From assembly GCF_036507355.1 (NCBI RefSeq), contig NZ_AP027877.1: 64,000 bases of DNA; one strand, given 5' to 3'. The first letter of the stretch is position 1; the number at the start of each line of letters is the position of its first letter. This document shows, in pieces, positions 2,136 through 4,122 of this stretch. The DNA is from Escherichia coli. Lineage in GTDB: Bacteria > Pseudomonadota > Gammaproteobacteria > Enterobacterales > Enterobacteriaceae. Position numbers and translations under genes: made by a program. The notes beneath the pieces are model-generated. The model saw only the letters and a list, made by a program, of their open reading frames with translations, was not told the DNA's origin and did not search any database.

Positions 2136-4122
<1,987 letters not shown>

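Follow-up and report, generated by a model that had tools for sequence, protein, structure and literature searches.

The DNA stretch analyzed here, referred to below as the window, comprises 64,000 nucleotides of Escherichia coli sequence and contains an E. coli-type fixCBA/caiTABCDE/caiF region. The gene order runs from fixC, fixB and fixA on the minus strand to caiT, caiA, caiB, caiC, caiD and caiE on the plus strand, followed by caiF, carBA, dapB and the thr leader. The first gene of the divergent fixABCX operon, fixA (1365-2135, minus strand), was assigned from open reading frames and matching E. coli records; caiT (2608-4122, plus strand), the first gene of caiTABCDE, which encodes the L-carnitine/gamma-butyrobetaine antiporter, was assigned from its 504-amino-acid open reading frame and the annotation of matching records. 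Between the fixA ATG, which ends at 2135, and the caiT ATG at 2608 lies an intergenic region of 472 bp. A 551-bp query spanning it found matches in 5,394 of 5,426 complete E. coli genomes, with a best identity of 99.1%, which is also the highest value reached by the first 24 kb of the window (1-24000) among the complete E. coli genomes in the collection; this places the window in an E. coli-type lineage absent from that collection. A scan of the whole window against Rfam returned zero families in the cai-fix region. Elsewhere in the window the Rfam matches were sok (31529-31681), tpke11 (33066-33143), the Thr leader (46923-47042, minus strand), two copies of naRNA4 (55720-55797 and 60115-60193), ES003 and ES036, a set that fits the 0-45 kb region of K-12 running past the coordinate origin.

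At positions 2453-2468 of this intergenic region stands the 16-mer TGTGACACCAATCACA (TGTGA-CACCAA-TCACA; surrounding sequence, aaaTGTGAcaccaaTCACAgaa), an inverted repeat with a 6-bp spacer, the left pentamer of which (2453-2457) and the right one (2464-2468) together agree with the CRP core at 10 of 10 positions. As a palindrome it has no strand of its own, and its center, at 2460.5, is located 147.5 bp upstream of the caiT ATG. The preliminary description had reported a perfect CRP palindrome upstream of caiT, and both its sequence and its coordinates were exact. When the 64 kb were searched for TGTGANNNNNNTCACA with zero mismatches, this was the single match, against an expectation of 0.04 per window derived from 100 dinucleotide-preserving shuffles, 4 of which contained at least one match. 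Tolerating up to two mismatches yielded 15 matches where 26 were expected; being below chance, these loose matches carry no meaning, the perfect one alone stands out, and all the others were set aside except that at 2275-2290, which is a known CRP site of fix (see below). Extended to 22 bp on the plus strand (AAATGTGACACCAATCACAGAA, 2450-2471), the site agrees with the symmetric consensus AAATGTGATCTAGATCACATTT at 14 of 22 positions, with the core pentamers and the AAA of the left flank perfect and the spacer and the right flank imperfect.

How exceptional is such a core? A double-perfect core is uncommon among E. coli CRP sites, albeit not unique: both pentamers are perfect at azuC, tnaC, caiT, hpt/gcd, yeiT, mglB, galP, three mtlA sites and proP, i.e. 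at about 11 distinct curated sites, as counted manually among some 290 RegulonDB rows in which many sites are duplicated (Shimada 2011 Table S4, PMC3105977). The original wording that the site is unusually strong is thus a fair one.

The palindrome is, moreover, already known, since it is the characterized cAMP-CRP activator site of the caiTABCDE promoter. Its K-12 counterpart by orthology is TGTGATACCAATCACA, with identical half-sites and a single difference in the spacer, which reads TGTGA-C-ACCAATCACA in the window (C at 2458) and TGTGA-T-ACCAATCACA in K-12, lowering the consensus match from 15 to 14 of 22; the C variant occurs also in E. coli O145 RM9872 and AVS0283. Also shared with the K-12 site are the locus, the flanks (AAA...GAA), and the spacing to the -10 hexamer, the caiT ATG, the CaiF sites and the CRP sites of fix. 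The entire fixA-caiT intergenic region is 98% identical to that of K-12 MG1655, with zero indels from the site to the caiT ATG. Support for cAMP-CRP binding comes from the K-12 orthologue, by way of its RegulonDB entry and genomic SELEX (PMC3105977). The RegulonDB row lists it as an activator site of caiTABCDE at -41.5 (cccgaaacaaAAATGTGATACCAATCACAGAAtacagcttat; Shimada 2011 Table S4, PMC3105977), the cai CRP site is placed at K-12 coordinate 42078.5 (Shimada 2011 Table S3, PMC3105977), and genomic SELEX with purified cAMP-CRP recovered caiT and fixA among the known targets (Shimada 2011 Table 1, PMC3105977). According to reviews, the induction of cai needs CRP (PMC2131755, PMC3680233). The proposal of the preliminary description that the site fits the catabolite control of carnitine metabolism is therefore well borne out by the curated activator site and the SELEX target (PMC3105977), together with the CRP-dependent induction. 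In those parts of the supplements of a ChIP-exo study of Crp that were available, a search for caiT, fixA and caiF gave no entry; this says little about the site, because the cultures are not described there as anaerobic with carnitine, so that cai was probably uninduced. The label 'CRP site 1', which is used here for the -41.5 site of caiTABCDE, presumably goes back to Buchet et al. 1999 (Mol Microbiol 34:562).

From where, then, does CRP act on this promoter? Given that the site is centered at -41.5 in K-12 and that no indel separates the two sequences, the cai transcription start of the window is predicted to fall on the G at 2502 (plus strand), 41.5 bp from the site center; this position is carried over from K-12 by way of a secondary source, the RegulonDB rows in Shimada 2011. 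The start lies 7 nt after a -10 hexamer, CATTAT (2490-2495, plus strand), which begins 21 bp after the CRP 16-mer, is invariant in an alignment of Escherichia sequences (described below) and agrees with the consensus at 4 of 6 positions, including the A at position 2 and the T at position 6. The nominal -35 element, CAGAAC (2467-2472, plus strand), by contrast matches TTGACA at only 2 of 6 positions and is overlapped by the CRP site. A weak -35 element lying under an activator site and followed by a usable -10 hexamer is the pattern of a class II promoter, and -41.5 is the class II position, as opposed to class I sites, which are found at about -61.5 and further upstream (PMC5957442). Hence, it is very likely in our view that CRP bound at 2453-2468 acts as a class II activator of the caiTABCDE promoter, with CaiF as its co-dependent partner.

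The same arrangement is met at the class II promoters galP1, mglBAC and gatY, where CRP binds at -41.5 or -42.5 and where the site likewise overlaps a poor -35 element, with the -10 hexamer 21 bp downstream of the 16-mer. At mglBAC (-41.5) and galP (-42.5) both pentamers are perfect, as they are at cai. What sets cai apart is that galP1, mglBAC and gatY work with CRP alone, whereas cai also requires CaiF, bound some 120 to 180 bp further upstream.

The assignment departs from the preliminary description, which had suggested class I activation on the basis of the distance between the site and caiT, and which had itself proposed a comparison with mapped cai transcription starts. That comparison places the CRP center at -41.5 (RegulonDB, K-12), overlapping the -35 element, and not at a class I position. 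The class I suggestion apparently arose because the roughly 147 bp to the start codon were judged without knowledge of the leader, an AT-rich stretch of 106 nt (2502-2607, plus strand) from the predicted start to the caiT ATG. More generally, the distance to a start codon is a poor guide to activator class when leaders are long.

Independent support for the class II geometry is provided by other species, in which CaiT was searched for in one genome per species (80 loci). The test, which was not conditioned on a hexamer, took the best CRP-like site with no more than two mismatches within 300 nt upstream of caiT. At +37, i.e. 21 bp after the site, a -10-like hexamer (CATTAT, CATCAT or CATGAT) followed in 48 of the 54 Enterobacterales loci, where the background is 5% per position. 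Of the six exceptions, four also have a -10-like hexamer at +37. Counted by genus, the +37 hexamer is present in 17 of 18, and any other offset in at most 3 of 18. Some Shewanella loci are arranged in the same way, with CGTGATAACGATCACT, 21 bp and then CATGAT or CATTAT. Since this register is kept while the distance from the CRP site to the caiT ATG varies from about 120 to 290 bp across Enterobacterales, CATTAT is the conserved partner of the CRP site.

These comparisons bear directly on the possibility that CRP acts after all from a class I position (-61.5, -71.5 or -82.5) on a start deeper in the leader, with the alpha C-terminal domain as its sole contact on the polymerase. Such a start could be accommodated within the 147.5 bp separating the site center from the caiT ATG, and the leader does hold -10-like hexamers (AATAAT at 2525 and 2528, AATTAT at 2531 and TATATT at 2534) from which CRP would stand at -76.5 to -85.5; a consensus promoter scan, which did not call the cai promoter, calls TTAACG-16-AATAAT at 2506-2533. 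However, a proper class I phase would result from just one of these hexamers, the promoter-like calls in the cai region are as numerous as in shuffled sequence (3 vs 3.1), the downstream offsets carry a -10-like hexamer in no more than 3 of 18 genera where +37 does so in 17, and curation puts the site at -41.5 from the mapped start, all of which makes class I activation very unlikely. Measured against class I promoters as a group, where a complete promoter is preceded by CRP at about -61.5, -71.5, -82.5 or -92.5, the cai site lies at -41.5 and the alternatives in its leader are not conserved in register.

The remainder of the intergenic region is occupied by CaiF sites and by the divergent fix promoter. 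Besides CRP, cai needs the activator CaiF (PMC2131755, PMC3680233, PMC12083890), which recognizes two 11-bp inverted repeats of the form TTTCAATATTG-N13-CAATATTGAAA (PMC12083890). One such repeat, TTTCAATATTG-N13-CAATATTGAAA itself, is found at 2323-2357 and does not vary in the Escherichia alignment; its center, 2340, is at -162 relative to the cai start and at -127 relative to the fix start. The second, found as a motif match, reads TTTAAATATTG-N13-CAATATTGAAA and lies at 2266-2300 (center 2283), -219 from the cai start; an extra half-site is present at 2231-2241. The left half-site of this fix-proximal repeat (2266-2276, TTTAAATATTG) carries a C-to-A change at 2269 that is private to the window: TTTCAATATTG stands there in K-12, in O145 RM9872 and A30 (the closest relatives), in O157:H7, E. 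albertii, E. whittamii and Salmonella, and the C at the equivalent position is kept in Citrobacter. The change breaks an otherwise perfect 11-bp inverted repeat and, judging from the sequence, could weaken CaiF binding beside the fix promoter.

The fix promoter (2213-2248, minus strand) was located by the promoter scan and the RegulonDB positions taken together. It consists of a -35 element, GTGACA (2248-2243), and a -10 element, TAAAGT (2225-2220), with a predicted start at 2213. RegulonDB lists two CRP sites for fixABCX, at -126.5 (GGTGATCCATAAAACA) and at -69.5 (GGTGAGGAACTTAACA) (Shimada 2011 Table S4, PMC3105977). Their counterparts in the window, both on the minus strand, are CRP site 3 of fix (GGTGATCTATAAAACA, 2332-2347, -126.5 from the fix start), an orthologue of GGTGATCCATAAAACA with an A in place of the K-12 G at base 2340 of the spacer, and CRP site 2 of fix (GGTGAGGAACTTAACA, 2275-2290, -69.5). 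Transferring these two distances gives a start at 2213, which is 7 nt after the TAAAGT of the GTGACA-17-TAAAGT found by the scan, an independent agreement between the two approaches. The predicted cai and fix starts are 289 bp apart; this we take to be the published figure. The weaker CRP sites of fix fall exactly within the 13-bp spacers of the two CaiF repeats, one in each, so that the two proteins, CRP and CaiF, have to share this DNA or compete for it.

Might the perfect palindrome serve mainly this divergent promoter, or both promoters equally? The two operons, cai and fix, are co-regulated from a shared control region, and single CRP sites can drive divergent promoters. The palindrome nevertheless lies 247.5 bp from the predicted fix start, and fix has CRP sites of its own at -69.5 and -126.5, which renders a fix-directed role most improbable. 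In the literature, cai-fix is filed under the divergent pairs regulated 'by different CRP molecules' (PMC3105977).

Another explanation to be weighed is that FNR binds the site, either alone or together with CRP, and thereby places cai under direct anaerobic control from -41.5. FNR and CRP sites are related, cai is induced anaerobically, and for the promoter region of cai one engineering paper mentions 'FNR and CRP binding sites' (PMC3680233); in addition, in Hafnia, Edwardsiella, Serratia, Leminorella and Limnobaculum, TTGAT-TAAG-ATCAC, which agrees with the FNR consensus at 9 of 10 positions, occupies the same register. In the window, however, the inner 14-mer GTGAC-ACCA-ATCAC matches TTGAT-N4-ATCAA at only 7 of 10 positions and carries CRP-type bases (G...C) at both outer discriminating positions, while ChIP-seq has FNR acting on caiF, with the CaiF-regulated genes treated as indirect targets (PMC3688515). 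Direct FNR control through this site is consequently extremely improbable, the ChIP-seq assignment of FNR being to caiF and not to cai-fix (PMC3688515). Nine loci of Leminorella, Limnobaculum, Edwardsiella, Serratia sp. H1w and Hafnia carry the element (T/C)TTGATTAAGATCAC(G/A), with TTAG in Serratia, about 240-290 bp upstream of caiT and 21 bp before CATTAT; this Hafnia-type site, TTGAT-N4-ATCAC, is composed of one FNR-type and one CRP-type half. By its sequence, the -41.5 activator may have been swapped, or may be shared, between CRP and FNR in these lineages.

Returning to the class II CRP site, its evolution was followed within Escherichia in an alignment of 14 sequences, namely 10 E. coli spanning the range of identities (a sample from 5,366 matching genomes), E. 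albertii, E. whittamii and two other Escherichia representatives. All 14 retain GTGA and TCAC unchanged, whereas the N6 spacer between the half-sites takes nine forms (CACCAA, TACCAA, CAACAA, TAACAA, CTAACA, TATTTA, TGATTA, TAGGCA and TTCACA) and the approximately 90 bp upstream of the site are highly diverged. The half-sites are thus constrained while spacer and flanks drift. Across 19 genera, the information peaks on the two pentamers, and constant pentamers around a drifting spacer are the signature expected for a dimeric factor reading two pentamers. An A-rich left flank and GAA(T) after the site are also kept across genera, the GAAT being as conserved as the pentamers. That the palindrome arose by chance and has no regulatory role, for which the shuffles leave some room in that 4 of 100 contain at least one perfect match and a single match in 64 kb is not overwhelming in itself, has a practically negligible probability, given its intergenic position in a CRP-dependent operon, its orthology to a curated and SELEX-recovered site, half-sites that stay constant while spacer and flanks diverge, and a -10 register kept in about 19 genera.

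Outside Escherichia, the downstream pentamer (site positions +11 to +15) tends to be a different one: TAACA is found in 28 of 51 sequences, TCACG in 8, TTACA in 5 and TAACG in 2. Both pentamers are perfect in just 5 of 51 (the window, E. albertii, Escherichia sp. MOD1-EC7003, Citrobacter youngae and Intestinirhabdus alba), so the perfect palindrome looks like a lineage-specific state. One could go a step further and propose that it is a derived state, reached when an imperfect ancestral site was strengthened in Escherichia only (TGTGA-N6-TAACA being the majority form elsewhere in Enterobacterales), and that the balance between CRP and CaiF at cai-fix is being retuned between lineages, with the strain of the window leaning more on CRP and less on CaiF. 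What invites the thought is that the polymorphic spacer of about 90 bp adjoins the site and that the private C-to-A change in the CaiF half-site co-occurs with it; even so, we consider this scenario unlikely.

Within E. coli, polymorphism is unusually high in the DNA that separates the CaiF site from CRP site 1 (approximately 2375-2452) and in the CRP spacer (2458-2463). A query of 100 bp (2411-2510) was 90-95% identical in 3,376 genomes and 80-90% identical in 647, with a best value of 98%, and the surrounding 24 kb are 95-99% identical in almost all genomes. The polymorphic stretch falls into at least two haplotype families, one of which is closer to E. albertii and E. whittamii. The 106-nt cai leader, unlike the variable DNA just upstream of the promoter, is almost invariant in the sampled Escherichia. 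Folding of the leader (2502-2607) was not significant (z = -1.09), and the same stretch gave zero Rfam matches; H-NS binding or translational control are guesses as to the origin of its conservation.

How would the promoter work? Taking the general class II model as a guide, a CRP dimer bound at 2453-2468 and centered at -41.5 would overlap the weak -35 element CAGAAC and would contact the alpha C-terminal domain upstream through AR1 and the alpha N-terminal domain through AR2 (PMC5957442), with AR3 possibly contacting region 4 of sigma70. These contacts would be expected to help both the recruitment of polymerase and the formation of the open complex (isomerization) at CATTAT (2490-2495). For the window strain, the polymerase contacts at the cai promoter are inferred by analogy with that model, and the start point is likewise an inferred one. 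The promoter is co-dependent in that it also needs CaiF at the two upstream sites, centered at -162 and -219, through which the carnitine and anaerobiosis inputs enter, CaiF being produced only when both glucose and oxygen are absent. It is reported that the synthesis of CaiF needs FNR and CRP (PMC3680233, PMC3688515) and that its activity needs a carnitine-derived CoA ester (PMC12083890). Through the combined CRP and CaiF inputs, the operon reads three signals: the absence of a preferred sugar, anaerobiosis and carnitine.

Co-dependent promoters of this kind ('class III' in the broad sense of requiring at least two activators) include melAB with MelR, malK/malE with MalT, and ansB with FNR. 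The likeness extends to the division of labor, in which CRP brings the carbon signal and a pathway-specific activator the substrate signal, and to the presence of several CRP sites in one divergent region. There are two differences: at cai it is CRP, and not the specific activator, that takes the polymerase-proximal position at -41.5, and the other two CRP sites of cai-fix fall within CaiF inverted repeats, in their spacers.

What is the significance of the site in the light of all this? The cai CRP site has been in RegulonDB for more than two decades, and the significance of finding it here goes little beyond correct annotation. The useful outcome is its correction from class I to class II, to which the comparison across genera makes a minor addition in the form of a fixed 21-bp gap between the site and the -10 hexamer, a spacer that varies, and the replacement of TCACA by TAACA outside Escherichia. 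For the organisms themselves, this is the CRP site through which gut enterobacteria link their anaerobic respiration of carnitine to the availability of glucose.
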